NCBI GenBank assembly: GCA_000996895.1 | Contig: LCBB01000005.1 | Coordinates: forward strand, 11,421-75,420 | Source: a candidate division WWE3 bacterium GW2011_GWC2_41_23 | GTDB taxonomy: Bacteria; Patescibacteriota; WWE3; UBA101185; UBA10185 | Direction: 5' to 3' | Length of the DNA stretch: 64,000 nt | Shown: piece by piece, positions 15,223 to 64,000 of the stretch | Numbering within the stretch: position 1 is the stretch's first letter | How the letters are laid out: every line of letters starts with the position of its first letter | Position numbers and translations under genes: made by a program | Notes under the pieces: model-generated | Told to the model about the DNA's origin: nothing | What the model saw: only the letters and a program-made list of their open reading frames with translations | Databases searched by the model: none

Positions 15223-16797
15223 ATGTTTTTACCGGAGCAGTTAAAGATGAAATCAAAAAAAGAGTTGTTGAGTAAAATTGTAAACGGCAGATATTTCACG
15301 GGTATCGCTGTGTCGTTATTCCTTTTTCTACTACTTCTCCCCCTTTCCCTAAAAATAGATTTTATGCAAAACGACGATTGGGTCTACTACGGGATGGTCG
15401 AGAATTTTATGAAACTGGATTTCAGACTGGATCCCTTGTCCGCACCTACTTTTTATACCCAAGGCATACTCGGAACTTTATTCGCCGGTATTTTCGGATT
15501 ACAGAGTTTGCCAATTCTTACGCTAATTATTTCCGTACTGTGTTTCTTCGTTTTTTACATTATTTTGTTAAGACATTTTAATTTGGGGCGGTTTGAGTCA
15601 GTATTGGTGTCCTTGTTATTGTTTTTTAATCCGCTTTTTATCTACTCTGTGTGGGGATTTATGACGGAAAACTATTTTTTGTTGTTTATGCTTCTTTCAA
15701 TCTTGTTTTATTTGGAAAGTGTAAATGTTCCGAGCAGGAAGAACCTTTTTTTGTACGTTGTTTTTATCTTTTTGGCTCTTAATATAAGGCAGGTTGCCTT
15801 GGTTTTGCCTTTGTCCGGTTTCGTATACTCGTTGTTCAAAAGGAATGTAAGGCCGCTTTTGTTGAATTTGGGGGTTTTGGTGGGGCTGGGTGTCTACTAT
15901 GTTTTTATTTTTCCGTTAACCGCCGAAATGTCGGAAAAAAGCCTCCAATTTCACCACCTTCAAAGCTCGCCTTACGTGTATTCGTTGATTTACGGGTCTT
16001 TTATATTGGCAACTGCCCTACTCCTTCCTTTACTACTGCCGATTTTTAAAGAAAAGAAAAAACTTAAATGGGCGCTGTTTTTGGGTTTAGCGGTAGTCGC
16101 CTATATTTTATTGAACCGATATTTTCAACCGTCAAAAGTTTCGTGGGGAGAATTTCCCTATTTCGAAAACACGCTGGAACGAAAGGGCTTTTACCCGAGA
16201 GGGGTGCTGGGTACAAAATATTATTTTAAGTACATGTTCGATCTTTACCGTCACTGGGATTCGGCTGCAAAGATTGTTTTAAGTCTTTTTGTTGCCTATG
16301 CGGTACTAAAAATAAAGAAAATAAACGGACTCTGGGCAGTATTCACAATTATTTATATGGGGGTAATGACTGTCACCGAAACTTATTACGACAGGTACTT
16401 GTTAATTTTAATCCCGGTTTTAATCTTTATTATTCTGGGAGTAAACGGTTTTGGAAAAGTGAATAAATTTTTGTCGGTGTCTTTTTTAGCTTTTTTGATT
16501 TTTTACAATTACCAGTTTTCAATGGATTTCATTTTGGTTAACAAATACATCTGGAATAAATCCGAGGAGCTGGTTGTGAAGTACGATAAAGAACCCAGAA
16601 GAGTACAGGGTACGAATGCTTGGAAGCTGAAGTATTTAAATGAGAGAAGAAACTATGTGTTCGATTTTACCTACGATAGCTCGGAAATAAACAAGTCCTA
16701 CCGCGATTTGTACACTACCGAAGAGGGTAAAAAGATAGAATTTCCGGGAAGTTTGTGGGTCAAACCGTACATTTATTTGTATCAGAAGATAGACTAG
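15223..16797 (+). CDS. polytopic membrane protein (glycosyltransferase-like)
   Basis: 524 aa with many TM helices. Follows the same-strand series of membrane proteins. Confidence 0.45.
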   Translation: MFLPEQLKMKSKKELLSKIVNGRYFTGIAVSLFLFLLLLPLSLKIDFMQNDDWVYYGMVENFMKLDFRLDPLSAPTFYTQGILGTLFAGIFGLQSLPILTLIISVLCFFVFYIILLRHFNLGRFESVLVSLLLFFNPLFIYSVWGFMTENYFLLFMLLSILFYLESVNVPSRKNLFLYVVFIFLALNIRQVALVLPLSGFVYSLFKRNVRPLLLNLGVLVGLGVYYVFIFPLTAEMSEKSLQFHHLQSSPYVYSLIYGSFILATALLLPLLLPIFKEKKKLKWALFLGLAVVAYILLNRYFQPSKVSWGEFPYFENTLERKGFYPRGVLGTKYYFKYMFDLYRHWDSAAKIVLSLFVAYAVLKIKKINGLWAVFTIIYMGVMTVTETYYDRYLLILIPVLIFIILGVNGFGKVNKFLSVSFLAFLIFYNYQFSMDFILVNKYIWNKSEELVVKYDKEPRRVQGTNAWKLKYLNERRNYVFDFTYDSSEINKSYRDLYTTEEGKKIEFPGSLWVKPYIYLYQKID

Positions 16798-16890
16798 ATA
16801 GATTTATTGTTATATTTGCTGCGTTGGTGCCATGTTTGTTATTCTTAACTCATATATAAAGGCAGCGAAACACACCCTTTAAAGTATAAG

Positions 16891-18390
16891 ATGACAAAAA
16901 TGAGGAACAGACCCGGAGCCGTAATGTTGTTAATAATCTTGCTGTTCTTACTTCCCCGGGTGTTCTTATTAGGCACCGATATATCAAACTCAGACGCGTT
17001 GAGGTGGCACAGAAGATCGGATAATTTTCTTCAAGCACTTAAAAACCAAAACTTTGAAAAAACTTACCAAAGATACCACCCCGGTGTTACTGCGATGTGG
17101 GCGGGGGCAGTGTCCGAACAAATACTTAACGAATATCAAAAACTTAAAGGGGACGAAATTGCTACCTTAGAAAATGCCGAGTTTTACCCGGTACTGCACG
17201 CGTTATCAAAATTAGTTTTGATTGCAATATTAGCTTTTTGTTTTGCGTTGCAAATCTACCTAGTAAGCAAATTATTCGGAAGTAAAACTGCTCTGTTATT
17301 TGGAATTATAATTTCCACGGAGCCATATTTTATAGGTATAAACAGATGGTTTCATCTATCGTCTATGGAAGCAATGTTTTCGTTAAATGTCCTTTTACTT
17401 TTGATGTATTTTATTCAAACCAACAAGTTGCGTTTCATTGTATTATCGGGTTTTTTTGCGGGGTTGGGGTTATTAACTAAAATGACGGTATCTATTACCA
17501 TAGCTTTTTCTTTTTCCTACATCTTATACAGAGTTTTTAGAAATAAGACTAAATTTAACGCAGCGGTATTTTACGTAATTTCTATATGTGTCACTGTATT
17601 AGTTTTGTTTCCTGCCTTGTGGGTAAAACCGATGTTTGTTTTTTGGTCGATGTACTCGGCTATTGTAAACGCCGTTTTTGAGGACATAAGGGGGGAGTTG
17701 CTTACGCTTCCGCAAAAGCTTTTTTATTACCCGATAATTTTATTATTTAAAATGTCGCCCGTGGTGTTGATAATAGGTGTTTACTCCATCATAAACACTT
17801 TTAAAAGGGTAACTAGTAAAGAATTTGTCTTAGGTGTATATCTCGTTTTCTTAGTAACATTTCTAACCATCACAGATCAAAAAATAGACAGATACTCCAT
17901 CGCGTTATTTCCTTTTTGGATACTATTGGTAGCAAACACCCTTTCAAAATTAAAACCTCGTATTTTGACTGTTTTGTTATCTATCCATGTCGCAACATTT
18001 ATATGGGCAACCTCAGTGTACTACCCTGTTTATTCTGCATTTATAAATCCTTTGTTCGGGCATAAATTTGTGTTAAACGCAGGATTTTATGAAAATTCCG
18101 GAGAGTATTTTTCAGAAGCGGCGTTTTATCTAAACATAAAAGGACGCAATATACGTACCCACGTCCCTAATAACATAGAGTCTTTTAAACCTTATTACAA
18201 AGGCAAGTTAACGGGGTTACTAGATGATGCTGACTACGTGGTCTATAGTTTGGATTTTGACCGCAAATCCTTTCCCGCTATTAAAGATTGTAAAATAGAT
18301 AAATATTTTGGAAACCGTTTATATAAACCCGTTGCTGTTTATGCATGTAACAACGTGAGTTTAAAAACAAAAAGCTATTTAGTCAGGTAA
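16891..18390 (+). CDS. polytopic membrane protein (ArnT/PMT-like glycosyltransferase candidate)
   Basis: 499 aa with many TM helices. Confidence 0.45.
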   Translation: MTKMRNRPGAVMLLIILLFLLPRVFLLGTDISNSDALRWHRRSDNFLQALKNQNFEKTYQRYHPGVTAMWAGAVSEQILNEYQKLKGDEIATLENAEFYPVLHALSKLVLIAILAFCFALQIYLVSKLFGSKTALLFGIIISTEPYFIGINRWFHLSSMEAMFSLNVLLLLMYFIQTNKLRFIVLSGFFAGLGLLTKMTVSITIAFSFSYILYRVFRNKTKFNAAVFYVISICVTVLVLFPALWVKPMFVFWSMYSAIVNAVFEDIRGELLTLPQKLFYYPIILLFKMSPVVLIIGVYSIINTFKRVTSKEFVLGVYLVFLVTFLTITDQKIDRYSIALFPFWILLVANTLSKLKPRILTVLLSIHVATFIWATSVYYPVYSAFINPLFGHKFVLNAGFYENSGEYFSEAAFYLNIKGRNIRTHVPNNIESFKPYYKGKLTGLLDDADYVVYSLDFDRKSFPAIKDCKIDKYFGNRLYKPVAVYACNNVSLKTKSYLVR

Positions 18391-18435
18391 ATCTCTTGAC
18401 ACCCGCAATTAAAACTAATAGTCTTTAAACCAAGC

Positions 18436-18966
18436 ATGCATATTAACCCCGCATTAAAAGGAACCCTGCTTACCACAATCTTAGCTGTTGTTTTTTCTGC
18501 ATCTCATGTTTTTTCTGCTTCCCTATCCTTGACTAAAATAGGCGCTTTAGATACAACAGGTAAAACTTATTCTGAATGGTGGTACTCACAGACAAGCGCT
18601 ACATTGGCAGGTACGGCTGCTGACGGAACTCAGGTGTCGGTAAAAGTTGGTGAGGCGGTAAACAACGTGAATGTCACATCAGGAACTTGGTCTTACGCGC
18701 TATCCGGTGAGAGTAAAGATTATCCGATTGAAATTTCCCAAGGTGCTGAAAAAATCTCGTTCACATTGCATCTAGGTCAGGTGCTTCCAAATACAGTAGT
18801 GGCAGGTTCTTCTCCTCAGACAGGCGGAGTGCCGGAAACAGGCTACAACCAAGTTATCGCAATAAGTCTGGGTGTGGGAATAGTACTTTTAGCTTCATAC
18901 TTTTACTTTTGGGGTGATTTAAAAAAGAAAACAGTTTTTGAAGCAAGAATGATCCGCGAAGATTAA
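18436..18966 (+). CDS. secreted surface protein with C-terminal sorting-signal-like anchor
   Basis: Signal peptide MHINPALKGTLLTTILAVVFSASHVFSA. C-terminus GGVPETG, then a hydrophobic helix, then KKK. Confidence 0.5.
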   Translation: MHINPALKGTLLTTILAVVFSASHVFSASLSLTKIGALDTTGKTYSEWWYSQTSATLAGTAADGTQVSVKVGEAVNNVNVTSGTWSYALSGESKDYPIEISQGAEKISFTLHLGQVLPNTVVAGSSPQTGGVPETGYNQVIAISLGVGIVLLASYFYFWGDLKKKTVFEARMIRED

Positions 18967-19595
18967 TCTTCCACAAAAGGCACGAACGCAAATCCGGGAA
19001 AAAATAAAGTGTCGAAATCCGTTTCTGTGTTTCTCACCATTTTGTAAATTCCACTGTCTTTAGGAAAAACCATAACTCCCCCGACCTTCAGTTGCTCTTT
19101 CCACGCTTCAGGTAATTCTCTGACTTCCGCAGCCGCGATTATTCTGTCAAATCCGCCGATTTCTTTAGAAACATTAGGCAGGCCTGTTTTTGCATTTCCC
19201 TCGTGAAGTGAAAGATTATCCGAAATCAAAGGATACTTGCCCACATTTTCTCCGGCATACTCGGAGAGTTTCGGAATAATCTCAACCGTGTAAACGTGGC
19301 CGTCTTCCCCCGACATAAAAGCTAATAAAGACGCCTGCCATCCCGAACCGGTACCGATATCAAGTATTTTATGCCCTTGCTTAATGTCCAGCAGTTCCAG
19401 CATGAACGCTACTGTGAATGGTTGGGAAATAGTCTGGCCGTAACCGATGGAAAGTGCGGCGTCGGTGTAGGAATTTCCCTTGTCTTCGGGTAGAACAAAA
19501 TCCGATCTGTCGATTTCCAGTAAAGCCTGTTCAACGGAAAAAGATTTCAGCACACCGGACGATTTAAGTTTATCTATAAGCTCGTGTTTGGTCAT
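18963..19595 (-). CDS. pcm: protein-L-isoaspartate O-methyltransferase
   Basis: LDIGTGSGWQASLLAFM and VYTVEIIPKL motifs. Start set at MTKHELIDKL (ATG 19593-19595), giving an ATGA overlap with the HIT gene. The longer ORF-track start would overlap HIT by 136 nt. Confidence 0.8.
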   Translation of the reverse strand: MTKHELIDKLKSSGVLKSFSVEQALLEIDRSDFVLPEDKGNSYTDAALSIGYGQTISQPFTVAFMLELLDIKQGHKILDIGTGSGWQASLLAFMSGEDGHVYTVEIIPKLSEYAGENVGKYPLISDNLSLHEGNAKTGLPNVSKEIGGFDRIIAAAEVRELPEAWKEQLKVGGVMVFPKDSGIYKMVRNTETDFDTLFFPGFAFVPFVED

Positions 19596-53775: not shown

Positions 53776-56265
53776 TTATTTTGCGGGATTTATATGACTT
53801 GCAGTTTGTCCGTAAGGAATATTAATTGGTTTAGAGCGGTTCACAACTTTTTTAAAAAGCTCGATTGAGAAAAATACCGAAATTGAAAAGCCAAACGCTA
53901 CCAACCAATAATTAACAGTTAACGCACTGAGGACGAAAAACTGTCTTGAAGCGGCTGTAGAAAAGGGTAGAAATTGAAGCGCTAACCCGGCAAAGACAGC
54001 CATTATCAAGTATTTATTATTAAATAAGTGGTTTTTCCAAAAGGGTTTTTTCGGGTCTTTTACCGCAAAGACATAGACTAGGGAGTTTAATCCGATGGTG
54101 ATAAATGTGACCGAACGGGCCAGAATTACATCTCCCGTGGAGTTATAGATATATATGAATGAAGATAAGGCGATAAGTCCTACAAGAAAGCTTACAAAAG
54201 CAATCAAAAATACCATTTTCTTGTTAACAAGAAGTTCCTTGGAAGAACGGGGAGCTTCATACATAATATCTTTTCTTTTAGGATCTACTGTTAGGGCAAG
54301 ATTTGGAAACCCGTCTGATACTAGGTTAATCCAAAGTATTTGAACGGCAGTCAGAGGCAAAGGAAGTCCCAAAATTATCCCGCCCAGAACTACGATAATT
54401 TCTCCGAAAGCGTCGCACAAAAGATAAAGTGTTACCTTTCTAATATTTTCAAACATCACCCTGCCCTCCTCTATCGCACCGATAATCGTGGAAAAATTTG
54501 AGTCGAGTAAAACCAAATCGGCAGATTCCTTCGCAACGTCAGAAGATTCTCCTACTACTACCCCGATGTCAGATTTATGTAAAGCCGGGGCGTCGTTTAC
54601 CCCGTCTCCTATCATGGCTACAACCTCGCCGTTATTTTTCAGCGCTTCTACGATTAAAAGTTTTTGATCGGGGGTTGTTCTGGCAAAAAGACGTATATTT
54701 TTTACATGGCGGGTGAGTTCTTCGGCGGAAAGTACGGCAAGCTGATCCCCGGTCATTATCTCATCTTTAGAAACCGAGATTTCCAGTTCCGAAAGTACAA
54801 ACTCGGAAGTATTGGCATAATCTCCCGTTATAACAACTACCCTGATACCTGCAATTCTGGCTTGCTCCAGGACGTCTTTTACTCCCATTCTCACCGGATC
54901 CGAAAAAACCAAAAGACCTACCCAGGTTAAATCACTTTTGGCATCGTCGTTATCTAAAACCTGTTTATCAATGTTTACTTCTTTTCTAGCAAAACCTACT
55001 ACCCTTTTTCCCTGCTTTGTCAGTTTATCTATGGATGAATGGATTTCTGATTTTTCATCTTTCGTCAAAGTTGTTCCTTGGAGAAGTATTTCAGGGGCGC
55101 CGTTCACAAAAATCATATTTTTGTCGTCAGTCCACTTACTTAGACATATGAAAAAGCGTTCTTTGGATGAAAAAGGAATGCTGTCAATTCTCGGAAGGCC
55201 CGGTGACGGATCCCCCATTATTTGTTTACCCCACTCATAGGCCGAAATAACAATAGGATCGTCCAGGTCGTTTGCAAGTAGTGTCTGAACAGCTAATTCT
55301 TTTTCGTTTCCGATAAAATCGACTACTTCCATTTGTCCCTGTGTTAATGTTCCTGTTTTATCAACGCATATTACGGTTACTCCGCCTAAAGTTTCGGCAG
55401 CCGCCAGTTTTCTCACAAGCCCTTTACGTTTCAAGATCTTTTGCATCCCTACTGCAAGAACAACTGTCAAAGAAACCAAAAGACCTTCGGGAATACTTGA
55501 GACAGCTAAAGCAACCGAAGTGGTAAATATTTCAACTAAACTGAATTTGTGTATAAGACCTACGACAAATACAACTGTAACTAACACTCCTATTACAATC
55601 AGCAGTTGTTTACTGAATGACTTCAATTGTCTTTGAAGAGGGGTTACTTCCTTTTCCTCCTGAATTTCCTGCGCGATCTTTCCCATCTTTGTTGTTGTAC
55701 CTGTAGCCTCAACCTGCATAACTGCCTGTCCTGAAACGACCGTGGTTCCCATATAAAGCTCGTCGTCTTTAACTTTTTCCACCGCGGCACTTTCGCCGGT
55801 TAATATAGATTCATTAAGGTGTAAACGGTTCGAGGATAATATTTTGCCGTCGGCGGGTATTTTGTCTCCCTGGCCAAGTATTACGATGTCGCCCGGTACT
55901 ATCTGACTGGTATCAATTAAAACCCTATTACCGTCTCTTATAACCGTTGCTTCATCCGAAATGAATTTTTTTAAAGCGGCCAAAGCATTGGATGTTCGGT
56001 ACTCCTGTATAAACCCGAGCGTTGTATTGATTGCCACGGCCAGAAGTATTATAAAAGCGTTTGCGTATTCTCCGATAAAAAAAGTTACGACTGCGGATGC
56101 GAGCAAAACGTATACCAGCGGGCTTTTTAATTGTGAAGAGAATAAATAAAATTTGCTGGGCGGCGCTTTTTCAGGAAGTATGTTAAGGCCGTATTGTTCT
56201 TGCCGCTCAACTATTTCGGTGCTTGTTAGTCCTTTTTCTTCTGTTAAAAACGGATATTTGACCAT
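53776..56265 (-). CDS. cation-transporting P-type ATPase (Ca2+/Mg2+ type II-like)
   Basis: Phosphorylation site ICVDKTGTLT. Hinge MIGDGVNDAPAL. TGES-type actuator (TGESAAVEK). Ten TM segments. Confidence 0.9.
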   Translation of the reverse strand: MVKYPFLTEEKGLTSTEIVERQEQYGLNILPEKAPPSKFYLFSSQLKSPLVYVLLASAVVTFFIGEYANAFIILLAVAINTTLGFIQEYRTSNALAALKKFISDEATVIRDGNRVLIDTSQIVPGDIVILGQGDKIPADGKILSSNRLHLNESILTGESAAVEKVKDDELYMGTTVVSGQAVMQVEATGTTTKMGKIAQEIQEEKEVTPLQRQLKSFSKQLLIVIGVLVTVVFVVGLIHKFSLVEIFTTSVALAVSSIPEGLLVSLTVVLAVGMQKILKRKGLVRKLAAAETLGGVTVICVDKTGTLTQGQMEVVDFIGNEKELAVQTLLANDLDDPIVISAYEWGKQIMGDPSPGLPRIDSIPFSSKERFFICLSKWTDDKNMIFVNGAPEILLQGTTLTKDEKSEIHSSIDKLTKQGKRVVGFARKEVNIDKQVLDNDDAKSDLTWVGLLVFSDPVRMGVKDVLEQARIAGIRVVVITGDYANTSEFVLSELEISVSKDEIMTGDQLAVLSAEELTRHVKNIRLFARTTPDQKLLIVEALKNNGEVVAMIGDGVNDAPALHKSDIGVVVGESSDVAKESADLVLLDSNFSTIIGAIEEGRVMFENIRKVTLYLLCDAFGEIIVVLGGIILGLPLPLTAVQILWINLVSDGFPNLALTVDPKRKDIMYEAPRSSKELLVNKKMVFLIAFVSFLVGLIALSSFIYIYNSTGDVILARSVTFITIGLNSLVYVFAVKDPKKPFWKNHLFNNKYLIMAVFAGLALQFLPFSTAASRQFFVLSALTVNYWLVAFGFSISVFFSIELFKKVVNRSKPINIPYGQTASHINPAK

Positions 56266-56355: not shown

Positions 56356-56697
56356 CTAGAAAATATTTTTAATAGCGTCCAATTTTTTTTCAAGAAACCC
56401 CCTCGTATCGCCGGTTTTATAGGAATGACCAAAACAAATACTGTTACACCTGAGAAAACACTTCATAGTAGATTTGCACTGAAAGTCTGCTGAAATACCT
56501 AGACAGCCCTCAACGACACCACCCTCCGGTAACGTACAGTTCAAATCCTGAAGACCGCCTTGTAATCCTGAACTTTGTTCGGATTCACAATAATCCTTAC
56601 AGGTTTTGTTAAATTTGGTATTAGTATATTTTTCAGGAAACAATACAACAGCTATCACTACCAATAATGTTATAAGTATTATCTTCTTTGTGCTCAT
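56356..56697 (-). CDS. secreted Cys-rich small protein, hypothetical
   Basis: N-terminal anchor. About 10 Cys in 113 aa. Confidence 0.4.
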   Translation of the reverse strand: MSTKKIILITLLVVIAVVLFPEKYTNTKFNKTCKDYCESEQSSGLQGGLQDLNCTLPEGGVVEGCLGISADFQCKSTMKCFLRCNSICFGHSYKTGDTRGFLEKKLDAIKNIF

Positions 56698-56909
56698 ACG
56701 TTAATACTAGCAGATTTCCACGCTTTCCACGACACCTCAGCCTCTTTTTTAGTTACAACCCTAATGGCAATTCCCATCTGTATCATCACGTAATCTCCGA
56801 CCTTTAACATCATTCCGCCAGCCAGAGCCTGTCTTGTTTCAGTAGGATACTCAACAATTAGTTTTTCACCTTGGATCTTTTTTACTATGCCCGGTATTGC
56901 TAAACACAT
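56694..56909 (-). CDS. hypC: [NiFe]-hydrogenase maturation factor HypC/HybG family
   Basis: Canonical N-terminus MCLAIPGIV. About 70 aa. Confidence 0.8.
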   Translation of the reverse strand: MCLAIPGIVKKIQGEKLIVEYPTETRQALAGGMMLKVGDYVMIQMGIAIRVVTKKEAEVSWKAWKSASINV

Positions 56910-56930
56910 CTATCTGATATTATACATAAT

Positions 56931-57455
56931 ATGGATGCTGCCAATACTACTGCTCAATCTCCTGAAAAAAAGAAACTTGTTGTGGGTTGGTTTTCTTTTA
57001 CATGCAGTGAAGACAGTACAATATTATTTACCGAGCTTTTGAACGATCACTTCAACGAATGGAAAACTCTTGTTGAGTTTAGACACTTAAAAGCTTTAAA
57101 AACGAACAATTCCATTAACGATCTCGATGTTGCATTTATCGAGGGGGCGATTTCTTCCGAAAAACAGGCAGCGGAAGTTACCAAAATCCGCAATAACTCA
57201 AAGTATGTGGTGGCAATCGGCGCGTGCGCCTGCAACGGACTCCCTTCCGCAAGTAGAAATATGTTCGTTCCCGAGAATGTAAGTTTTAAAACCAAATGGT
57301 ATTTGGAAAACTTTGATTACGCGGCGAAAGTTAAAAAACTCGAAGATGTGATTAAGGTAGATGATAAAGTAGAAGGCTGCCCGATGAATGCCGAGGCCTT
57401 CAAAACCGCGCTTTGGAAATATTTAAAATTATTTAGGATAGTCGAAAATGCATAG
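56931..57455 (+). CDS. [NiFe]-hydrogenase small subunit, minimal NuoB-like (proximal cluster only)
   Basis: Only four Cys: FTCSE, GACACNG and EGCP, the NuoB/hydrogenase small-subunit proximal [4Fe-4S] ligand pattern. 174 aa. Overlaps the large-subunit start by 8 nt. Confidence 0.7.
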   Translation: MDAANTTAQSPEKKKLVVGWFSFTCSEDSTILFTELLNDHFNEWKTLVEFRHLKALKTNNSINDLDVAFIEGAISSEKQAAEVTKIRNNSKYVVAIGACACNGLPSASRNMFVPENVSFKTKWYLENFDYAAKVKKLEDVIKVDDKVEGCPMNAEAFKTALWKYLKLFRIVENA

Positions 57456-58749
57456 TGGAAATATAACAATTGAAAATATAACAAAAGTTGAAGGGACAGC
57501 CGGAATTGACGTTACCATTGAGAACGACAGAGTAACCTCTCTTAAATTTATTATTAAAGACTACCGTAGATTTTATACTGAGGCTGTGCTCGGAAAGCCG
57601 TTTATCGCGTCCCCGTCCTTTTTGTCGAGAATTTGTGGTACCTGTTCGGTCGCCCATCTATTTGCGTCCCTCGAAGCTATTGAAAAGTCGCAGGATATTA
57701 AACTGACCGAGCAAACGCGGTTGTTACGAAGACTGGCTTACGACGGGCTGATGATACGCGACCATGCTTTGCACCTTTACTTTTTTGTTTTGCCCGATGT
57801 TTTGGGCATTGATTCGATTTTGGATATCCCCGACACTCACGATGACCCCGGGCACATACTGCTTCACGACTCGTTTGATATAAAAAAGCTCGGGACCGAC
57901 ATAACCGACGTAATAATAGGAGCTGCAATTCACGCTCCGTATCCGACGGTCGGAGGTTTTCTAAGAACCCCCGATCCGGCTAAATTTCCGGCGTTAATAG
58001 AACGTCTGGAAAAAATTAGGCCTCAGGTTTTAAGAGGAATTAAAACTTTTTATGATTACAAACAGGAACTTTTAAGCGATTCGGACTTTTTATGTCTAAG
58101 AAACGGTGTGAGTTTTGATTTCATTGAAGGAGAAATTACAAACTCCGACGGTAAGGCTATTTCCGAAAACAATTTTCATGACTTCCTTAAATCCGTCGTC
58201 GTTCCCTACTCTCAATCGGAAGGATACGTATTCTCCGACGAACACGACAACTACCTGGTAGGTTCTCTGGCGAGAATTAATTTTAATAAAGACTTGCTTA
58301 ATCCGAGAACCAAACAGGATTGTGCAGAATACTTAAATGTTTTCCCGTCTAAAAATGTTCATCATAATAATTTGGCTCAGGCAATAGAAATTCTTCAATG
58401 TGTGGACGACGCGCTTGATATTTTAAAAAGCATAAAAATAGTTGAGGAAAAGCCCGTCAAGATGCCAAAAAAGGCAGGTGTGGGGGTGGGAGTTGTAGAG
58501 GCTCCGAGAGGAACTTTGTACCACATGGCTAGAGTAAATGAAAAAGGAATGATTGAGGACTACGATGTTATTGTTCCAACTTCCCAGAACCAGATCAATA
58601 TAGAAAAAGATTTGAAAAAATACTTTGCCGCAAATCTGGATAAGCCGGAAGATGTTTTAAGAGTAGAGGCTGAGAAAATAATCCGCGCTTACGATCCCTG
58701 CATGTCCTGCGCAACCAACTTTTTAAAAATTAACTGGATACGCAAGTAG
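57448..58749 (+). CDS. [NiFe]-hydrogenase large subunit (group 3-like)
   Basis: L1 motif RICGTCSVAH (RxCGxCxxxH). L2 motif DPCMSCAT (DPCxxC). 433 aa. Confidence 0.85.
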   Translation: MHSGNITIENITKVEGTAGIDVTIENDRVTSLKFIIKDYRRFYTEAVLGKPFIASPSFLSRICGTCSVAHLFASLEAIEKSQDIKLTEQTRLLRRLAYDGLMIRDHALHLYFFVLPDVLGIDSILDIPDTHDDPGHILLHDSFDIKKLGTDITDVIIGAAIHAPYPTVGGFLRTPDPAKFPALIERLEKIRPQVLRGIKTFYDYKQELLSDSDFLCLRNGVSFDFIEGEITNSDGKAISENNFHDFLKSVVVPYSQSEGYVFSDEHDNYLVGSLARINFNKDLLNPRTKQDCAEYLNVFPSKNVHHNNLAQAIEILQCVDDALDILKSIKIVEEKPVKMPKKAGVGVGVVEAPRGTLYHMARVNEKGMIEDYDVIVPTSQNQINIEKDLKKYFAANLDKPEDVLRVEAEKIIRAYDPCMSCATNFLKINWIRK

Positions 58750-59090
58750 TCTAATTTCTTCTCCATCGGAAGTCCTATTATCGTAACATTCCCGAGCTTT
58801 CCGAGTTTCTTTAGGTATTTTAGTTGAAATCCCAAATCAAAATCGTGAACGGAAACCGAACCGGTATTTATAAGTTTGTCGAGGTCAGTGTCTTCGATTA
58901 GAGTAGGCTCGTCTATCCCTTCGACAGCGTCCATTATGTAAACGTGCTCTTCGGGTTCAAACGGGAGATCGGCGTTAGGAGCAACCTCTGCAAACTCAAT
59001 TTGCGGGAATATAGCACTCAACTTTTTTTGCGCGGTAAAAGCTTTGTTGTCTAACCCCAAATCTTTATTTCCGAATACATAAACTTTCAT
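58689..59090 (-). CDS. hydrogenase maturation endopeptidase (HycI/HybD family)
   Basis: VYVFGNKDLGLDNKAF, IMDAV and SVHDFDLG correspond to the HybD metal-ligand regions. Convergent with the large subunit, overlapping its 3' end by about 60 nt. Confidence 0.65.
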   Translation of the reverse strand: MKVYVFGNKDLGLDNKAFTAQKKLSAIFPQIEFAEVAPNADLPFEPEEHVYIMDAVEGIDEPTLIEDTDLDKLINTGSVSVHDFDLGFQLKYLKKLGKLGNVTIIGLPMEKKLDYLRIQLIFKKLVAQDMQGS

Positions 59091-59393
59091 AGGCAACCTT
59101 TATTTTACAACACGTTTAAGGCGCTCCAACTAAATTCAAGATTTACACTCCCCCCGAATTCATTAGGTTATTGCGGCAAGGATTCTGCCCCCGAAAAGTT
59201 TAAAGACTGCGTTATTAAAGGCAAGTGTGCCGGGGTTGAAGAGGAGTTTAAGCATTTTATTGTTTTACACCCGTATTTAAGGACTCTGTCTAAAATCACC
59301 GGTCTTCCGAAATTTTCTTATAAGGTTGTCGAGAGTTATTGGCTGGGAAACGACAAACTCCTTAAAGCAAAGAATAAAGACTACCCTACTTTA

Positions 59394-59816
59394 TTGAACT
59401 TTTTTGTAAAACAAGGGGTTCCTGAATGGTTTGTGGCCGAGCTTAAAAAAAGTAAGCCGAATAAATTTATTCCCACCCACCTATTTCAGGTTTTACACGT
59501 AGGCGTCGGAAGGGCAAGCGGCTCGGTCCCGTATAATCTGGAATCTATTAATAACTGCATGATCCGTTGGGGGAAAGTTGAAAAAGTTAATAGGAAAACG
59601 GCTGTAGTAAATTTGAATTCGTTGAAAAAAGTTAGGGGCGGTTACAAGCGCACACTTATTACCGAAACTTTTCCGTTTGTTGAAGGATTTGTTCCCGATC
59701 TAAAAGTAGGGGACACCGTGACGGTTCACTGGAAACAGATTGTAAAAATACTAAGTGAGGAAGAGATTGAAAAAATAACATTTTGGACGGATAAAGTACT
59801 GGAAAGTATCGGTTGA
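59394..59816 (+). CDS. hypothetical protein (TTG start; upstream in-frame open region lacks any start codon)
   Basis: 140 aa from the TTG at 59394. The frame is open for a further ~113 codons upstream to 59055 (contains CGKDSAPEKFKDCVIKGKC) with no in-frame ATG/GTG/TTG. Confidence 0.4.
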   Translation: MNFFVKQGVPEWFVAELKKSKPNKFIPTHLFQVLHVGVGRASGSVPYNLESINNCMIRWGKVEKVNRKTAVVNLNSLKKVRGGYKRTLITETFPFVEGFVPDLKVGDTVTVHWKQIVKILSEEEIEKITFWTDKVLESIG

Positions 59817-59819
59817 AAA

Positions 59820-59856
59820 AGAAAAACCGGACTTTTTTGTAAAATCCGGTTTTGGG
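59820..59856. terminator. bidirectional terminator between convergent genes
   Basis: aaaaccggacttttttgtaaaatccggtttt. Confidence 0.55.
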
Positions 59857-59858
59857 TA

Positions 59859-60197
59859 CTACCTCACTTTGATAACAACGGGTTTTCCTACAGCACTCTC
59901 GAGTGTAAATAAAATATCAGATTCGAGTTCTTTCCAGGTAAATGCTGAATTCTTCTCAACATATAAGCAAAAAGGTTTCAGCGCTACCTGCTCGATCCCA
60001 TCTATATCGTTAAGCTTCAAAATCAGGTTATGACCGATATAACCTACATTACTATCTTGAAGTAAGAATGGGTTCAGAGGAAATTCAAAAATTTCCATAC
60101 CCGAGTCGGAAATACGTTCGTGGACGTTATACTGTCTGAAATTACGTCCGCCCACCCGTCTGTCGATCTTCACAACCAAAGTTTCGTGGGTACACAT
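59859..60197 (-). CDS. hypothetical protein
   Basis: 112 aa, soluble. No motif recognised. Confidence 0.4.
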   Translation of the reverse strand: MCTHETLVVKIDRRVGGRNFRQYNVHERISDSGMEIFEFPLNPFLLQDSNVGYIGHNLILKLNDIDGIEQVALKPFCLYVEKNSAFTWKELESDILFTLESAVGKPVVIKVR

Positions 60198-60286: not shown

Positions 60287-61204
60287 CTATAGGATAGTAG
60301 AAGTATCGAGTTTTGCTGTAGGTACGGAGTTTCGTGAGAATAGAGCCAGCCCCGCGACTATCAAAACAGTTTGTGCCGTCAGAGTAACATTCCAGCCATG
60401 GGTGATGAATATGGCGGAAAGTATATTAGTAATAAGAGTCGAAGAAACCAGAACTGAAGTTACTACAACCGCCGGAGCGTGCTTTAAAGCCCGGTACCAG
60501 GTTGTGGTGTAAGCCAGCAAAAAAAGCACGGTTAATCCGATTAAAAAATATTGTTGTCCGTTTAAATTTAAACTTTTTTGCATCACCTGAGGCACTGTAA
60601 TTAATGTTGCGGACATAAGGACAACCGAACCTAATCCCATCCTGAAAGCCGTAACAATGTTTGAAGAAACAGTCGCTAAAACTTTTTTCGCGATAATATT
60701 TTCGACTGCCCATAAAACCGTTGCAACTAAAAGCATTAATTCTCCCTGAGAAAATTTAAAACCTTTAAAACCTCCGACAATAGTATTTCCCGCGAACAAC
60801 ATTAACACTCCCACAAACTGCCATTTAGAAACCTTCTCTTTTAATAACGGGATTGCCATCAGCATAACCCAAAACACTAAAGTTTTGTGAATAAGCGCGG
60901 CATTAATTGCGGGAGTTTGAGAAAGTCCGGTGAAATACAGATAGAAAGGGAGTGAACCTCCGACCAAACCGATTAGCACCAAATATCCTAGTTCTTTTTT
61001 TGTAAGGCGGACAATTTTCCTCCACTCTCCCGTAGCCAAAACTATGGAGATAATCAAAAAGGCAACTGCCAGATTTTTAACGGAGGTAAAATAAAGTGCG
61101 GGTTTAATGGCGTCAACGGCAAATTTGTTTACAAAAATGGAAATACCTGAAATTACAGCCGTAAGTAAGGCCAAATATATTCCTTGCATACTTTTTTTTG
61201 ACAT
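60287..61204 (-). CDS. EamA/DMT-superfamily transporter
   Basis: 305 aa with ten TM helices arranged as two EamA-like halves. Confidence 0.75.
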   Translation of the reverse strand: MSKKSMQGIYLALLTAVISGISIFVNKFAVDAIKPALYFTSVKNLAVAFLIISIVLATGEWRKIVRLTKKELGYLVLIGLVGGSLPFYLYFTGLSQTPAINAALIHKTLVFWVMLMAIPLLKEKVSKWQFVGVLMLFAGNTIVGGFKGFKFSQGELMLLVATVLWAVENIIAKKVLATVSSNIVTAFRMGLGSVVLMSATLITVPQVMQKSLNLNGQQYFLIGLTVLFLLAYTTTWYRALKHAPAVVVTSVLVSSTLITNILSAIFITHGWNVTLTAQTVLIVAGLALFSRNSVPTAKLDTSTIL

Positions 61205-61214
61205 AAATCTATAA

Positions 61215-61460
61215 CTAGTCAGGCCAAACCTGCTTACCGGTTTCGGTATCGGTTACGACAATTGCCTTTGTAGGGCATGACTGCGCGGCCATCAGTATGT
61301 TTTCGGCCTCGTCGGTTCCCTCTTCGATTACTACGGCTTTGCTCTTGTCGTCCAATTTAAACACAGAGGGAGATACAGCAACGCAGGATGCCGCACTTAT
61401 GCAGGCTTCTCTCAGGACCTTTATTTTATATTTTCCGATTTGAATTTCTTTATTTTCCAT
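61215..61460 (-). CDS. single-cluster ferredoxin (3-Cys, C-x2-A-x2-C ... CP pattern)
   Basis: EACISAASCVAV ... AQSCPTKAI. The central ligand is replaced by Ala, as in [3Fe-4S]/Pfu-type ferredoxins. Confidence 0.65.
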   Translation of the reverse strand: MENKEIQIGKYKIKVLREACISAASCVAVSPSVFKLDDKSKAVVIEEGTDEAENILMAAQSCPTKAIVVTDTETGKQVWPD

Positions 61461-62356: not shown

Positions 62357-64000
62357 TTCTTGCTCCTTATGTTATTAACCTTATCGATTATTTCTTCGGG
62401 GTAAATCTGGCGGCCGTCGTATTTAAGAAAACTTTCATTAATATTTATTTTTGTATTTTCTCTGATTAGTCTTTCCATCTGTCCGGTGTAGTTGCATTCA
62501 ACGTTAAGAATGTATTTTGATTTAGACAACATTTCGGTTAGTGCTTCCGCGGGAAATGGGCTCATCCAGTTTATGTGTACGTAATTTACGTTTTCTAAAC
62601 TTTTTAGAGCCTGAGTTATTGTTCCTTTGTTGCTTCCCCAGGAAACTATAGTTATTTCTGCGCTCTCCGGACCGAATAGTTGTGGTTTTTCCATATCCTG
62701 CTCTTTGCAGGTTTTGAGTTTGGTCATTCTTTTTTCCATCATTCTGTTTCTGTTATCGCTTTCTTCATTTGAGTAACCTTCTTCGTCGTGTTCATCGGAA
62801 TTTGCGATAAAAAAGTTTCCTACCCCCGGTATTGTTCGTTGAGAAATTCCTTCAGGGTCTGACGCGTATCTTTTATAACCTTCTATTTTTTGCATGTTAA
62901 GTTTTCCGCGGTCTATCTTATATTCCGGGTATTCATAGAGAGGAAAACTTTGCGCGTTTTCACAAATATTCTTGTCGATTATTAAAACGACGGGTGTCTG
63001 ATATTTATCGGCCAGGTTAAATGCTTTCATTGTAAGCTCAAAAACCTCTTTTGCGTCTCCTGCAGCTAAAACTATCCGTGGGAAATCACCCTGATGGGCG
63101 TTTAGTATCATTTGAAGGTCGCCCTGGTCGCTCCAGGTCGGTAAGCAGGTTGCAGGACCGGGACGCATTCCCTCTATAATTACCAACGGTGTTTCGGTCA
63201 TCCCCGCGAGCCCGTAGCCCTCGGTCATCAGGCAGAAACCTCCGCCTGAAGTGGATGTCATAGCTCTTGCCCCGGCGTAAGATGCTCCGATTGCCATATT
63301 TATTGCAGAAAGTTCGTCCTCGGGTTGCTTATATATGTATCCGTACTTTTCCTGGTTTTCGGCGAGAACTGCGAGAATATTTGAAATAGGGGACATCGGA
63401 TAAATTGCCGCGTATTGCAGTCCTGCAGAGATAGCTCCGAGGGCTACGCTTTCGTTTCCGTCAATTGCCATGTAGGGAACAAAATTACTTAGTGATTCTA
63501 AAGGACTTAAGGAATTCTTTAAATGCTGTTTGTAATTTTCCGTAACAAATTTAAAACCATTTTCAGCGGCTGTAACATTAACTTTTACTACCTCGTCTCC
63601 TTTGCTTCCGAACTCTTCCGAGATTAGGCCGTTTAGAATTATGAGGTTGCCGCCGAGAACTGCGGTAACGGCACCCAAAGCGACGGTGTTTATTAACAAA
63701 TCAGAGTTTCCGGCTTCTTTAGCAATTTTGGATAACGGCACCCCGATTAAAGCTACAGTAGAAGGAACTTTGGATGTGTCGATTTTGGCTTCAGAGTCAT
63801 ATATTAGACCTGCTTCTCCTGCAAATTCAGTGACATGTTTGTTAATTGTGTCCTGGTTTAATGCGATAAGAATATCGTTAACTTTTCTCGGCGCCGTAAC
63901 TTCTTCTTTGGAAATATTTACCTGTAAAACGTTATGACCGCCTTTAATTAAAGAAGGATATTCAATGTGGTTATATATGTGGTAGCCCGATCTAATAGCG
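62353..64000 (-). CDS. 2-oxoacid (pyruvate):ferredoxin oxidoreductase alpha subunit with fused N-terminal gamma domain (partial, N-terminus beyond window end)
   Basis: Alpha-domain motifs NGNESVALGAISAGLQYAAIYPMSPIS and GYGLAGMTETPLVI. The frame stays open upstream of the ORF-track GTG through 64000 (gamma-like region ...KGGHNVLQV...). ATGA overlap with the beta subunit. Confidence 0.85.
   Translation of the reverse strand, partial: AIRSGYHIYNHIEYPSLIKGGHNVLQVNISKEEVTAPRKVNDILIALNQDTINKHVTEFAGEAGLIYDSEAKIDTSKVPSTVALIGVPLSKIAKEAGNSDLLINTVALGAVTAVLGGNLIILNGLISEEFGSKGDEVVKVNVTAAENGFKFVTENYKQHLKNSLSPLESLSNFVPYMAIDGNESVALGAISAGLQYAAIYPMSPISNILAVLAENQEKYGYIYKQPEDELSAINMAIGASYAGARAMTSTSGGGFCLMTEGYGLAGMTETPLVIIEGMRPGPATCLPTWSDQGDLQMILNAHQGDFPRIVLAAGDAKEVFELTMKAFNLADKYQTPVVLIIDKNICENAQSFPLYEYPEYKIDRGKLNMQKIEGYKRYASDPEGISQRTIPGVGNFFIANSDEHDEEGYSNEESDNRNRMMEKRMTKLKTCKEQDMEKPQLFGPESAEITIVSWGSNKGTITQALKSLENVNYVHINWMSPFPAEALTEMLSKSKYILNVECNYTGQMERLIRENTKININESFLKYDGRQIYPEEIIDKVNNIRSKK

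Follow-up and report, generated by a model that had tools for sequence, protein, structure and literature searches.

The 64-kb stretch of DNA analysed here (the window) comes from the genome of a WWE3 bacterium (Patescibacteria), an ultra-small member of the "candidate phyla radiation" (CPR), and carries a two-subunit [NiFe] hydrogenase gene cluster that is real and strongly conserved. The hydrogenase type is not new. It is the CPR-specific, group-3b-related clade "hyd2" of Jaffe et al. 2020 (BMC Biol 18:69, PMC7304191), described there with a truncated small subunit, a hypC neighbour, no beta/gamma subunits and "function uncertain", and the suggestion in a preliminary description that the arrangement is untypical of described enzymes therefore falls away. 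What we add is a conserved module of protease, DUF6390, EamA, ferredoxin, 2-oxoacid:ferredoxin oxidoreductase (OFOR) and ACD-FNR genes, as well as archaeal group 3b operons that contain DUF6390 and EamA. Gene content, motifs, folds, selection and conserved synteny are established, and we lean, at somewhat better than even weight, toward a soluble H2-evolving hydrogenase that would reoxidise the ferredoxin reduced in pyruvate fermentation, a reading in which we infer the partner, the activity and the direction of catalysis.

Gene content and conservation of the locus

The hypC gene, a 174-aa small subunit, a large subunit and a protease all lie where the preliminary description had placed them, and are listed here with the other features of the locus.

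56694–56909, minus strand: hypC (HypC/HupF chaperone), 71 aa, N-terminal MCLAIPG; PF01455 at 54.2 bits (cut-off 28.5)
56931–57455, plus strand: truncated [NiFe] hydrogenase small subunit, 174 aa; PF01058, proximal [4Fe-4S] domain only
57448–58749, plus strand: [NiFe] hydrogenase large subunit, 433 aa, CPR hyd2 clade, 3b-related; PF00374 at 92.7 bits
58689–59096, minus strand: HycI/HybD-like maturation endopeptidase, 135 aa; PF01750 (HycI) at 23.8 bits (cut-off 23)
59115–59816, plus strand: DUF6390 protein, with a new helical N-terminal domain and a HypC-fold C-terminal domain
59823–59853, no strand: terminator-like hairpin (13-bp stem) separating the convergent DUF6390 and o112 genes
59859–60197, minus strand: o112, small ORF of 112 aa at the end of the minus-strand operon
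60287–61204, minus strand: EamA/DMT-family membrane transporter, 305 aa, hydrogenase-associated accessory gene; PF00892
61215–61460, minus strand: single-cluster 3-Cys ferredoxin, 81 aa, candidate redox partner; PF13370/PF13459
61499–62356, minus strand: OFOR beta subunit, 285 aa; TIGR02177 at 327.6 bits (cut-off 261.9), PF02775, PF12367
62353–64000, minus strand: OFOR alpha subunit, fused gamma-alpha type, exceeding the window; TIGR03710 at 512.8 bits (cut-off 482.75)

The hypC gene diverges from the small-subunit gene across a 21-nt spacer, the small-subunit gene overlaps the start of the large-subunit gene by 8 nt, and the endopeptidase gene is convergent with the large-subunit gene, their 3' ends overlapping by 61 nt on opposite strands, as had been noticed earlier. 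The DUF6390 frame is open from 59061, and its first canonical start codon is a TTG at 59394. The OFOR alpha frame is open through base 64000 (relatives are about 580 aa), and the next gene upstream of OFOR alpha in relatives, just past the window end, encodes an ACD-FNR fusion (ADP-forming acetyl-CoA synthetase plus an FNR-like domain).

Gene content was compared over these 64 kb of WWE3 genome and about 20 kb at each of 33 related loci. Across the 33 loci, hypC, the two subunits, the protease and DUF6390 form a fixed module, usually continued by an operon of the EamA transporter, the 3-Cys ferredoxin and the OFOR. For the synteny counts, the denominator was the 22 related loci whose downstream sequence reaches 6 kb or more, and these are not independent samples: the protease is present in 22/22, a hypC homologue in 21/22 and EamA in 17/22. 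The hosts of the syntenic loci are WWE3, Daviesbacteria, Woesebacteria, Shapirobacteria, Collierbacteria and Uhrbacteria. Purifying selection is strong on all module genes, with dN/dS values against WWE3 relatives of 0.02–0.08 for the large subunit (0.02–0.035 on its own), the small subunit, the protease and DUF6390. Because the L1 and L2 motifs are kept in 120 homologues and dN/dS is low, the ORFs are not chance. The small ORF o112 has homologues in four loci by BLASTP and five by clustering, all of them WWE3 (L001–L004), and only a weak Nfu_N match (E 0.002, below cut-off); its membership of the hydrogenase system is uncertain.

Catalytic core and maturation genes

The large subunit contains RICGTCSVAH (L1) and, at the C-terminus, DPCMSCATN (L2) followed by a 9-residue tail, FLKINWIRK; the canonical Ni-Fe ligand motifs previously noted are intact. 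Among the 120 nearest large-subunit homologues, L1 (RxCGxCxxxH) is intact in all, exactly as RICGTCSVAH in 114, the other six each differing by one conservative change at a non-ligand residue, and the L2 core DPCMSC and the next-residue Asn are present in 120/120. The top NCBIfam matches, ShyA/HydA, score 219/215 bits, far under their cut-offs of 700/880, and the top PDB sequence matches are T. kodakarensis HyhL and P. furiosus SHI alpha. The AF2 model (pLDDT 83) matches 9nf0_H and 9e15_L at TM 0.80, the fold resembling that of P. furiosus SHI alpha (TM 0.80), with about 28–29% identity in the structure-based alignment, while BLASTP gives 37% identity to a Woesearchaeota 3b large subunit. Since L1 and L2 are conserved, dN/dS falls at 0.02–0.05 with dS saturated and the fold matches P. 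furiosus SHI alpha, we infer that the large subunit, which retains all four Ni-Fe cysteine ligands, would be catalytically competent.

The preliminary description had singled out the C-terminus for its short tail and for an Asn in place of the usual His or Arg. The 9-residue tail and the Asn are both present, but the short tail is not unusual, as group 3b tails are normally short: the 3b large subunits of P. furiosus and T. kodakarensis have about 4 residues past the His, and a FLELxW-type tail is common to the window (N-FLKINW) and the archaeal 3b relatives (H-FLELNW). Only the His-to-Asn change is clade-specific. C-terminal processing is an assumption, since the cleavage-site residue is Asn, not His/Arg.

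The small subunit has exactly four Cys (C25, C99, C101 and C150). C25, E27, D28, C99 and C150 are invariant, and C101 is kept in 29/30. It aligns to residues 2–150 of a 253-aa archaeal 3b small subunit, its best PDB match, P. furiosus SHI delta (HydD), is confined to residues 6–160 of 266, and the C-terminal medial/distal cluster domain is absent. This alignment to 3b small subunits, over the proximal-cluster domain only, supports the two-subunit cytoplasmic [NiFe] core proposed previously. The earlier count of four Cys for one proximal [4Fe-4S] cluster is correct, but the ligand set is not canonical, as CxxC is replaced by C[C/S]EDS; the extra Cys lies in GxCAC. Nor is a single-cluster small subunit unusual, with HoxY (189 aa, 5xf9_C) and HydS (179 aa, 7t2r_E) as precedents.

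In the protease, D16, D56 and H84 are invariant and sit at the HycI metal-triad positions; the protein shares 31% identity with its counterpart in a Woesearchaeota 3b operon, and a PDB sequence search gave no match. Maturation would rely on the adjacent HypC and on the HycI-type endopeptidase, which would cut at the short Asn-FLKIxW tail. DUF6390 is a candidate further helper, probably a hydrogenase maturation factor in view of its HypC-fold domain and its place with EamA in archaeal 3b operons, and the EamA transporter may perhaps be another. Genes for hypA, hypB, hypD, hypE and hypF were not found in the window or the locus flanks.

Relation to group 3b and other hydrogenases

In a phmmer search of all six-frame ORFs with archaeal 3b subunits, the 64-kb window yielded neither a beta nor a gamma subunit, and neither HypA nor the C-terminal cluster domain of the small subunit; no membrane subunit is encoded there either, in agreement with the preliminary description. 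Beta subunits, stand-alone cluster domains and HypA were not found in the 33 hyd2 loci either, and their gamma-like matches are on the ACD-FNR fusion only. Likewise, Jaffe et al. reported zero beta-type HMM matches near hyd2, and gamma-type ones on other strands only (PMC7304191). In DPANN and Thermoplasmata archaea, DUF6390 and EamA also occur within 3b operons that have all four subunits. A Woesearchaeota operon of this kind contains HycI, HypC, EamA and DUF6390, each 31–42% identical to its window homologue, and a Thermoplasmata operon gives BLAST matches for EamA (35%) and DUF6390 (30%) only; the window EamA is 35–39% identical to the EamA genes adjoining DUF6390 in archaeal 3b operons. 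Because the accessory genes and the tail motif are common to archaeal 3b operons, the hyd2 lineage appears to have arisen from group 3b enzymes by reduction.

The core in the window does not differ from that of the hyd2 clade, with a CPR host, a hypC-like neighbour and no proximal beta/gamma; the small subunit is 174 aa against a clade mean of 164 aa (PMC7304191). Two leaves of the Jaffe et al. hydrogenase tree (RIFOXYB1_FULL_WWE3_43_24 scaffold_296 and RIFOXYD1_FULL_WWE3_43_17 scaffold_2365) have large subunits 94% identical to that of the window. Group 3b (P. furiosus SHI HydABGD; T. kodakarensis Hyh) offers the closest large subunit by sequence and fold, and is likewise cytoplasmic, with a short C-terminal extension and maturation by HypC and a HycI-type protease, but in the window beta and gamma are missing, the small subunit consists of the proximal-cluster domain only, Asn replaces His at the processing site and the CxxC ligand pair is replaced. 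HoxYH (group 3d, NAD-reducing) and HydSL (bifurcating NiFe-HydABCSL) have small subunits of 180–190 aa with the proximal cluster only, as in hyd2; however, these modules stay permanently bound to the flavin and FeS subunits of the same operon (HoxFU, HydABC), none of which is in the window, and their large subunits match less closely (E 1e-28 and 3e-39, versus 4e-56 for 3b). The role proposed for hyd2, H2 release from pyruvate-reduced ferredoxin, is that of group 4 Ech/Mbh [NiFe] and group A1 [FeFe] hydrogenases, but group 4 enzymes sit in the membrane, translocate ions and have NuoD-like large subunits, and [FeFe] hydrogenases are unrelated to hyd2. To our knowledge, no soluble ferredoxin-linked [NiFe] heterodimer has been characterised.

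A functional precedent is the engineered alpha-delta dimer of P. furiosus SHI (structure PDB 9e15), a two-subunit 3b core without diaphorase, which is active with viologen, has lost NADPH as a substrate, and evolves H2 when POR is the direct donor, while ferredoxin is not accepted (Hopkins et al. 2011, PMC3200332). That dimer is man-made and its delta subunit still has three clusters, whereas hyd2 is natural and further reduced, with a predicted activity.

Ferredoxin neighbourhood and candidate electron partner

The ferredoxin and two-subunit OFOR genes lie 2.1–2.4 kb from the hydrogenase genes, confirming their reported presence within 3 kb, and this is more than coincidence, as neighbours in the same order include ferredoxin in 18, OFOR in 16 and ACD-FNR in 18 of the 22 loci. 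Two loci (L025, L028) keep ferredoxin and ACD-FNR without OFOR. The ferredoxin gene precedes EamA by 10 nt on the same strand, in one operon; EamA, which in archaea belongs to the hydrogenase operon, here directly follows ferredoxin within the OFOR operon. Part of this conserved synteny may stem from inheritance or transfer of the whole block and not from a functional link. In locus L039, an additional stand-alone FNR-like protein adjoins the ferredoxin.

In the ferredoxin, C20, C26 and C62 are invariant in a CxxAxxC...CP pattern, which we take to be typical of [3Fe-4S] ferredoxins, and its cluster is probably [3Fe-4S]. The potential of clusters of this kind often lies well above that of the H+/H2 couple. 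This probable cluster type counts against the ferredoxin as partner, as do the 4/22 loci in which ferredoxin, OFOR and ACD-FNR genes are all absent nearby.

We propose a catalytically competent, cytoplasmic heterodimer of the hyd2 lineage that would keep one proximal [4Fe-4S] cluster on a rearranged Cys set and would have lost the diaphorase (beta, gamma). The two-subunit OFOR would reduce the 3-Cys ferredoxin, the presumed partner, which would pass electrons to or from the proximal cluster and may also equilibrate with NAD(P)H via the FNR-like domain of the ACD-FNR fusion; the net effect would be to turn fermentative reducing equivalents into H2 while acetyl-CoA is converted to acetate and ATP. 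A complete, related WWE3 genome has been described as that of a fermenter that has PFOR and an ADP-forming acetyl-CoA synthetase (PMC3812714). Of the ferredoxin exchange suggested in the preliminary description, the gene link is conserved, but direct exchange between hydrogenase and ferredoxin is a supposition, given that ferredoxin, unlike POR, did not supply electrons to the P. furiosus alpha-delta dimer (PMC3200332).

Electrons could instead come from NAD(P)H, oxidised by the FNR domain and passed through the small ferredoxin to the proximal cluster in place of 3b gamma and beta, a possibility we regard as real but rather unlikely. ACD-FNR is found in 18/22 loci and adjoins the ferredoxin in L025 and L028 without a nearby OFOR, the extra FNR-like protein in L039 also sits beside the ferredoxin, and a moderate-potential [3Fe-4S]-type ferredoxin would suit an NAD(P)H donor better than pyruvate. 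The FNR domain is closest in the PDB to NADH:[2Fe-2S]/ferredoxin reductase modules (NqrF, benzoate dioxygenase reductase, MMO reductase); it does not derive from hydrogenase gamma (E 1.9e-7 for P. furiosus SHI gamma versus 1e-23 for NqrF) and lacks the [2Fe-2S] binding extension (PF10418) of gamma subunits. Moreover, its fusion to acetyl-CoA synthetase has no explained logic, and thermodynamics disfavour H2 production from NAD(P)H except at very low H2. We consider it improbable that OFOR reduces the hydrogenase directly, leaving ferredoxin to other reactions, as in the engineered system in which the alpha-delta dimer accepts POR electrons and refuses ferredoxin (Hopkins et al. 2011). OFOR genes are adjacent in 16/22 loci, but the CPR OFOR has two subunits (Pfam matches POR, POR_N, PFOR_II, TPP_enzyme_C and PFO_beta_C only) and lacks delta, the two-cluster ferredoxin-like exit wire of P. 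furiosus POR. In addition, ferredoxin is kept slightly more often than OFOR (18 versus 16 loci), and its gene sits between the OFOR and hydrogenase-associated EamA genes.

An ordinary 3b tetramer with beta and gamma encoded elsewhere in the genome would fit the proximity of the large subunit to 3b enzymes and a view limited to 64 kb of genome and about 20 kb per related locus, but we hold it very unlikely. Because the small subunit has lost the medial/distal cluster domain, through which delta is wired to beta in 3b, there would be no place for a canonical beta-gamma module to dock; furthermore, beta homologues number zero in the 33 loci, the survey of Jaffe et al. agrees, and Kantor et al. 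list no beta/gamma-type subunits for the complete RAAC2 WWE3 genome (PMC3812714). It is similarly doubtful, to about the same degree as direct transfer from OFOR, that the protein is not a working hydrogenase, but an H2 sensor or an unmaturable relic, or that it is an uptake enzyme feeding ferredoxin for reductive carboxylation. The missing hypA, hypB, hypD, hypE and hypF near any locus, the non-canonical proximal-cluster ligands and the general reversibility of [NiFe] enzymes point that way. Against it stand the very strong purifying selection on both subunits, the protease and DUF6390, the metal-ligand motifs conserved throughout the homologues, a dedicated protease and HypC kept in nearly all loci, and a neighbourhood that encodes no signalling partner. 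The host organisms, moreover, are fermenters with PFOR and ACD, which favours H2 evolution.

Hydrogenase genes and assignment to hyd2

The window holds four hydrogenase genes at exactly the coordinates that a preliminary description had given for them, and further downstream lie a ferredoxin gene and the genes of a 2-oxoacid:ferredoxin oxidoreductase (OFOR).

56694-56909, minus strand: hypC, 71 aa, N-terminus MCLAIPG; Pfam HupF_HypC (PF01455), 54.2 bits against a cut-off of 28.5
56931-57455, plus strand: hydrogenase small subunit (SSU), 174 aa; Pfam Oxidored_q6
57448-58749, plus strand: hydrogenase large subunit (LSU), 433 aa; Pfam NiFeSe_Hases; start overlaps the SSU stop by 8 nt
58689-59096, minus strand: protease ORF, 135 aa; Pfam HycI, marginal
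61215-61460, minus strand: ferredoxin, 81 aa, three Cys; followed by a two-subunit OFOR that runs past the window end

The hypC product has the features of the HypC/HupF family, namely a length of ~70-90 aa, an N-terminal Met-Cys and the PF01455 domain. When the six-frame ORFs of the window were queried with the archaeal group 3b diaphorase subunits beta and gamma, the SSU C-terminal domains and HypA, no match was found, and the earlier remark that the locus lacks beta and gamma therefore stands. Jaffe et al. (2020) divided the ‘3b-related’ hydrogenases of CPR bacteria into hyd1, with beta and gamma, and hyd2, with an SSU of 164 aa on average, a hypC-family neighbor and no proximal same-strand beta or gamma (PMC7304191). 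The window locus combines a CPR genome, a truncated SSU (174 aa), an adjacent hypC and no detectable beta or gamma, as in hyd2. Its LSU is 94% identical to those of three WWE3 MAGs, 91% identical to that of the complete genome RAAC2_WWE3_1, for which only a ‘type 3B-like’ hydrogenase was mentioned (Kantor et al. 2013, PMC3812714), and 100% identical to a protein from ENA metagenome assemblies. Two WWE3 scaffolds whose LSU is 94% identical to that of the window are leaves in a short-branch clade of the Jaffe et al. tree; this match was read from the Newick file, and the hyd1/hyd2 labels are given in the figure only.

The two-subunit locus is thus real and well conserved, yet it is a rediscovery, because the arrangement, which the preliminary description had called ‘not typical of described’ enzymes, was published in 2020 as CPR hyd2, missing diaphorase and tiny SSU included, with the comment that ‘its function remains uncertain’ (PMC7304191). 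Our literature searches for follow-ups on hyd2, for DUF6390 and for hypD/E/F in CPR found no publication. The main value of the present analysis is the added genomic context and not the arrangement itself, and the new leads are an invariant DUF6390 partner with a HypC fold and its archaeal 3b context, a link to EamA, a fusion of ADP-forming acetyl-CoA synthetase with an FNR-like domain (ACD-FNR), and rearranged ligands of the proximal cluster. Against WWE3 relatives, where dS is saturated (1.1-2.2), dN/dS was 0.02-0.035 for the LSU, 0.03-0.05 for the SSU, 0.05-0.08 for the protease and 0.014-0.06 for DUF6390, and from these low values all four are working genes.

Subunits, proximal cluster and protease

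The LSU scores 92.7 bits with PF00374 (gathering cut-off 25.8). Among thousands of scored homologues, the closest 120 (73-100% identical, nearly all of 433 aa) belong to Patescibacteria wherever the source names an organism. The L1 and L2 Ni-Fe ligand motifs reported for the window LSU, RICGTCSVAH and DPCMSCAT, are both present and kept across this set: L1 is intact in 120/120, with the exact RICGTCSVAH in 114, and the DPCMSC core of L2 is followed in all 120 by the Asn that had been noticed in place of His or Arg, the first tail residues being nearly as constant. The best NCBIfam models are two sulfhydrogenase alpha equivalogs, NF040828 (219 against a cut-off of 700) and NF040832 (215 against 880), so the LSU falls short of the group 3b HydA/ShyA equivalog score though both are its top models. 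Its top PDB sequence matches are T. kodakarensis HyhL and the alpha subunit of P. furiosus SHI, the group 3b HydABGD enzyme (E ~1e-55), and its AF2 model (pLDDT 83) superimposes on P. furiosus SHI alpha with a TM score of 0.80, the matched entries including the engineered alpha-delta dimer 9e15. A non-catalytic, Ehr-like group 4 protein, the possibility that the preliminary description had left for checking, is ruled out by the four retained Ni-Fe Cys ligands, by best matches to group 3 and not to NuoD/HycE, and by the absence of membrane partners.

The 9-residue tail of the LSU, which ends in DPCMSCATN followed by FLKINWIRK, had been regarded as anomalously short. However, the 3b LSUs of P. 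furiosus and T. kodakarensis extend only ~four residues past the His, so a short tail is usual for the group, and the archaeal relatives end in H-FLELNWT or H-FLELDLVRD where the window LSU has N-FLKINWIRK; the sole clade-specific trait of the tail is the His-to-Asn change. In the AF2 model the conserved LKINWI (LSU 427-432, window 58726-58746) forms a beta-strand with moderate confidence, and residues 420-424 near the L2 Cys have low confidence. The strand may resemble the tail pairing reported for T. kodakarensis HyhL in its immature state.

The SSU aligns solely to the N-terminal half of 3b SSUs, which binds the proximal cluster, and matches residues 6-160 of the 266-aa P. furiosus HydD and residues 2-150 of the 253-aa Woesearchaeota SSU. 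A group 3b delta subunit is ~250-265 aa long and binds three clusters, proximal, medial and distal; at 174 aa, the SSU is missing the Cys-rich C-terminal domain for the last two. As first described, it contains exactly four Cys, C25, C99, C101 and C150. A tiny single-cluster SSU is less anomalous than had been supposed, since HoxY (group 3d) and the SSU of bifurcating HydABCSL also have a single cluster, but these are docked to co-encoded flavin/FeS subunits and none such is found at hyd2. Residues 25-29 (window 57003-57017) read C[C/S]EDS in place of the canonical CxxC, with an invariant C25 one position ahead of the usual first Cys and a Ser at the position of the second, and residues 99-101 (window 57225-57233) carry an extra Cys after the third ligand (GxCAC). 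C101 is missing in one of 30 family members, and because this sole exception has a tandem CC, every one of the 30 keeps at least four Cys. The tandem CC form resembles the CC motif of NuoB-type subunits. The candidate ligand sets are C25/C99/C101/C150 and variants using C26. We also considered Asp28 as a stand-in for the second CxxC ligand, on the model of Asp60 in FrhG (PMC3591093), and rejected it because in both the HMMER and the MAFFT alignment it is residue 26 (S/C) and Ser29 that line up with the canonical Cys. A PDB search with the N-terminal fragment of the SSU returned nothing useful.

The protease ORF matches PF01750 marginally (23.8 bits, cut-off 23) and shares 31% identity with the protease encoded in an archaeal 3b operon; all NCBIfam models stayed under their cut-offs, and among PDB sequences the protease profile retrieved chance SMC matches only. 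D16, D56 and H84 are invariant among 22 family members, and we take these to be the positions of the HycI metal triad (reference triad Asp/Glu16, Asp62 and His90/93). The PF01750 match and this putative triad suggest a HycI/HybD endopeptidase. Enzymes of this family cut the LSU behind the His/Arg next to DPCxxCxx, a position occupied by Asn in all 120 homologues. The LSU and protease genes run towards each other and in every locus share their last 61 nt (58689-58749 in the window). Read on the complementary strand, the codons of the L2 motif DPCMSCATNF specify the protease C-terminus KLVAQDMQGS, so the two sequences constrain each other.

Conserved neighborhood

We compared 32 species-representative loci and one additional locus (L039) by clustering and six-frame phmmer. 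The genes follow a fixed order, hypC(-), SSU(+), LSU(+), protease(-), DUF6390(+), EamA(-), ferredoxin(-), OFOR-beta(-), OFOR-alpha(-) and ACD-FNR(-).

Presence of neighboring genes in the 22 loci with at least 6 kb downstream; the loci are non-independent samples
protease: 22/22
DUF6390: 22/22
hypC: 21/22
ferredoxin: 18/22
ACD-FNR: 18/22
EamA: 17/22
OFOR: 16/22

The redox operon is not nearby in 4 of the 22 loci. In the window, only 10 nt separate the ferredoxin stop from the EamA start and the OFOR genes share 4 nt, implying one minus-strand operon, and a hairpin with a 13-bp stem (59823-59853) lies between this operon and the convergent DUF6390 gene.

DUF6390 (PF19927, cut-off 25) is recognized in the window as a fragment of 48.6 bits and in a full-length relative at 106.6 bits; it consists of a new helical domain and a C-terminal HypC-fold domain, and clustering at 50% identity leaves 543 representatives of the family. 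Its genes also occur in other archaeal and bacterial contexts (L034:8001-8717, L035:8001-8747, L037:2731-3477 and L038:1346-2455). In one Woesearchaeota and one Thermoplasmata genome, DUF6390 and EamA lie inside complete four-subunit 3b operons, which encode a Fer4_22 beta, an NAD_binding_1+DHODB_Fe-S gamma, an SSU of 253-264 aa, LSU, HycI, HypA and HypC. Another archaeon has the trio EamA-DUF6390-HypC on its own. One bacterial genome encodes DUF6390 as a fusion with a PadR domain beside an Opp/Nik-type ABC transporter, a hint that DUF6390 might take part in the handling of metal, perhaps nickel. The protease, HypC, EamA and DUF6390 of the window are 31-42% identical to the Woesearchaeota proteins; the Thermoplasmata operon gave BLAST matches from EamA (35%) and DUF6390 (30%) only. 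From these contexts and the 31-42% identities, we regard DUF6390, possibly with EamA, as a candidate hydrogenase accessory or maturation factor, and we derive hyd2 from a DUF6390-linked 3b cluster that would have lost beta and gamma along with the distal half of the SSU. We rejected DUF6390 as the missing electron-transfer subunit, at least as the main reading, because it also occurs beside complete four-subunit operons and has a C-terminal HypC fold.

The DUF6390 frame of the window is open over 59061-59816 on the plus strand, yet its first ATG, GTG or TTG is at 59394. Compared with the loci L002 and L003, a 26-bp deletion takes out their DUF6390 ATG; locus L001 has ATC at this place and L004 a 1-bp deletion. 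The 90 codons upstream of 59394 have a dN/dS of 0.014. The lack of an early start codon is likely to reflect initiation at a non-canonical codon, such as the in-frame ATA near 59079, a lesion of very recent origin or a fault in the assembly.

ACD-FNR is a protein of ~950 aa in which the alpha and beta domains of ADP-forming acetyl-CoA synthetase are joined to a C-terminal FAD_binding_6/NAD_binding_1 region. In L004 its gene lies upstream of the OFOR genes (16658-19525, minus strand), and in the window genome it would fall just past base 64000. This fusion, which lacks PF10418, is the sole gamma-like match in any locus and is probably the ‘NAD-binding hit not on the same strand’ of Jaffe et al. 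Its FNR domain is far closer to NqrF and to BenC-type NADH:ferredoxin reductases than to P. furiosus SHI gamma; with these as its best PDB relatives, a weak match to SHI gamma and no PF10418, we do not regard it as a displaced hydrogenase gamma. No beta homologue was found in the window or in 33 loci, and the pair that defines group 3b, a multi-FeS beta and a gamma with FAD/NAD(P) and 2Fe-2S sites, is absent from all of them. A regex scan of 647 kb of loci for HypD, HypE, HypF, HypB and HypA gave nothing convincing, although this is a weak test, its HypA pattern having missed the Pfam-annotated HypA of L034 and L035.

Two further ORFs lie near hypC. A P-type cation ATPase (829 aa, PEGL/DKTGT type; 53776-56265, minus strand) adjoins hypC in the window, and its homologue occurs in 8 of 32 related loci, directly beside hypC or the SSU gene in the WWE3 loci and L013 and several genes downstream in L025 and L028. 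The start of a 113-aa ORF (56356-56697, minus strand) overlaps the stop codon of hypC. This ORF encodes nine Cys and a membrane anchor at its N-terminus; neither the 32 related loci nor Pfam and NCBIfam gave a match to it, and it may be lineage-specific or spurious.

Candidate electron partners of hyd2

On balance, we consider it somewhat more probable than not that hyd2 is a ferredoxin/OFOR-coupled, H2-evolving hydrogenase. Because it would have only the proximal cluster and no docking subunits, hyd2 should require an external iron-sulfur partner, and the co-inherited ferredoxin would be the simplest candidate; OFOR would reduce this ferredoxin, with a possible tie to NAD(P)H via the FNR domain. 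The model fits the fermentative metabolism of WWE3, with PFOR and ADP-forming acetyl-CoA synthetase (PMC3812714). The preliminary description had already proposed electron exchange with ferredoxin, and the conserved ferredoxin/OFOR synteny speaks for this idea. The engineered alpha-delta dimer of P. furiosus SHI, a two-subunit core without diaphorase, sets an experimental precedent, in that the dimer is active, ignores NADPH and produces H2 with POR as its direct donor, although ferredoxin does not serve it as a donor (PMC3200332). The three-Cys ferredoxin (CxxAxxC...CP) may have too positive a potential for the role.

The behavior of the engineered dimer would suit a hyd2 to which OFOR passes electrons directly, but the ferredoxin gene is kept in slightly more loci than OFOR (18 and 16 of the 22), and we think such direct transfer improbable. 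An NAD(P)H-linked enzyme working through the FNR domain and ferredoxin is a minor but reasonable candidate, given the frequent ACD-FNR neighbor and the resemblance of its FNR domain to NADH:ferredoxin reductases. We give little credence to a non-catalytic, sensor or uptake-only protein, the catalytic ligands being invariant, and almost none to beta and gamma subunits encoded elsewhere in the genome. More speculatively, we can picture a natural minimal soluble [NiFe] hydrogenase fed by free ferredoxin or directly by OFOR, whose assembly would rely on DUF6390 and EamA as an unrecognized maturation pair common to DPANN/Thermoplasmata 3b enzymes, perhaps in tiny genomes without part of the Hyp machinery.

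If the ferredoxin- or OFOR-coupled heterodimer is true, hyd2 would be the natural [NiFe] hydrogenase with the smallest architecture, a counterpart in nature of the ‘minimal hydrogenase’ engineered from P. furiosus SHI, and a soluble [NiFe] path from ferredoxin to H2, otherwise the task of [FeFe] or membrane-bound group 4 complexes. The DUF6390/EamA pair is a concrete lead on hydrogenase maturation in very small genomes. Genes such as hyd2 are the basis of whatever CPR bacteria, abundant in groundwater and sediments, contribute to hydrogen turnover. Seven contigs with a CPR-type hyd2 cluster (L026, L019, L022, L025, L005, L007 and L010) carry public labels among Candidatus Methanoperedens, Gammaproteobacteria and Saccharibacteria. 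Their gene content and 68-85% identity to WWE3/Microgenomates proteins suggest mis-binning or mislabelling, and such contigs may lead to overcounting of ‘3b hydrogenases’ in those taxa.
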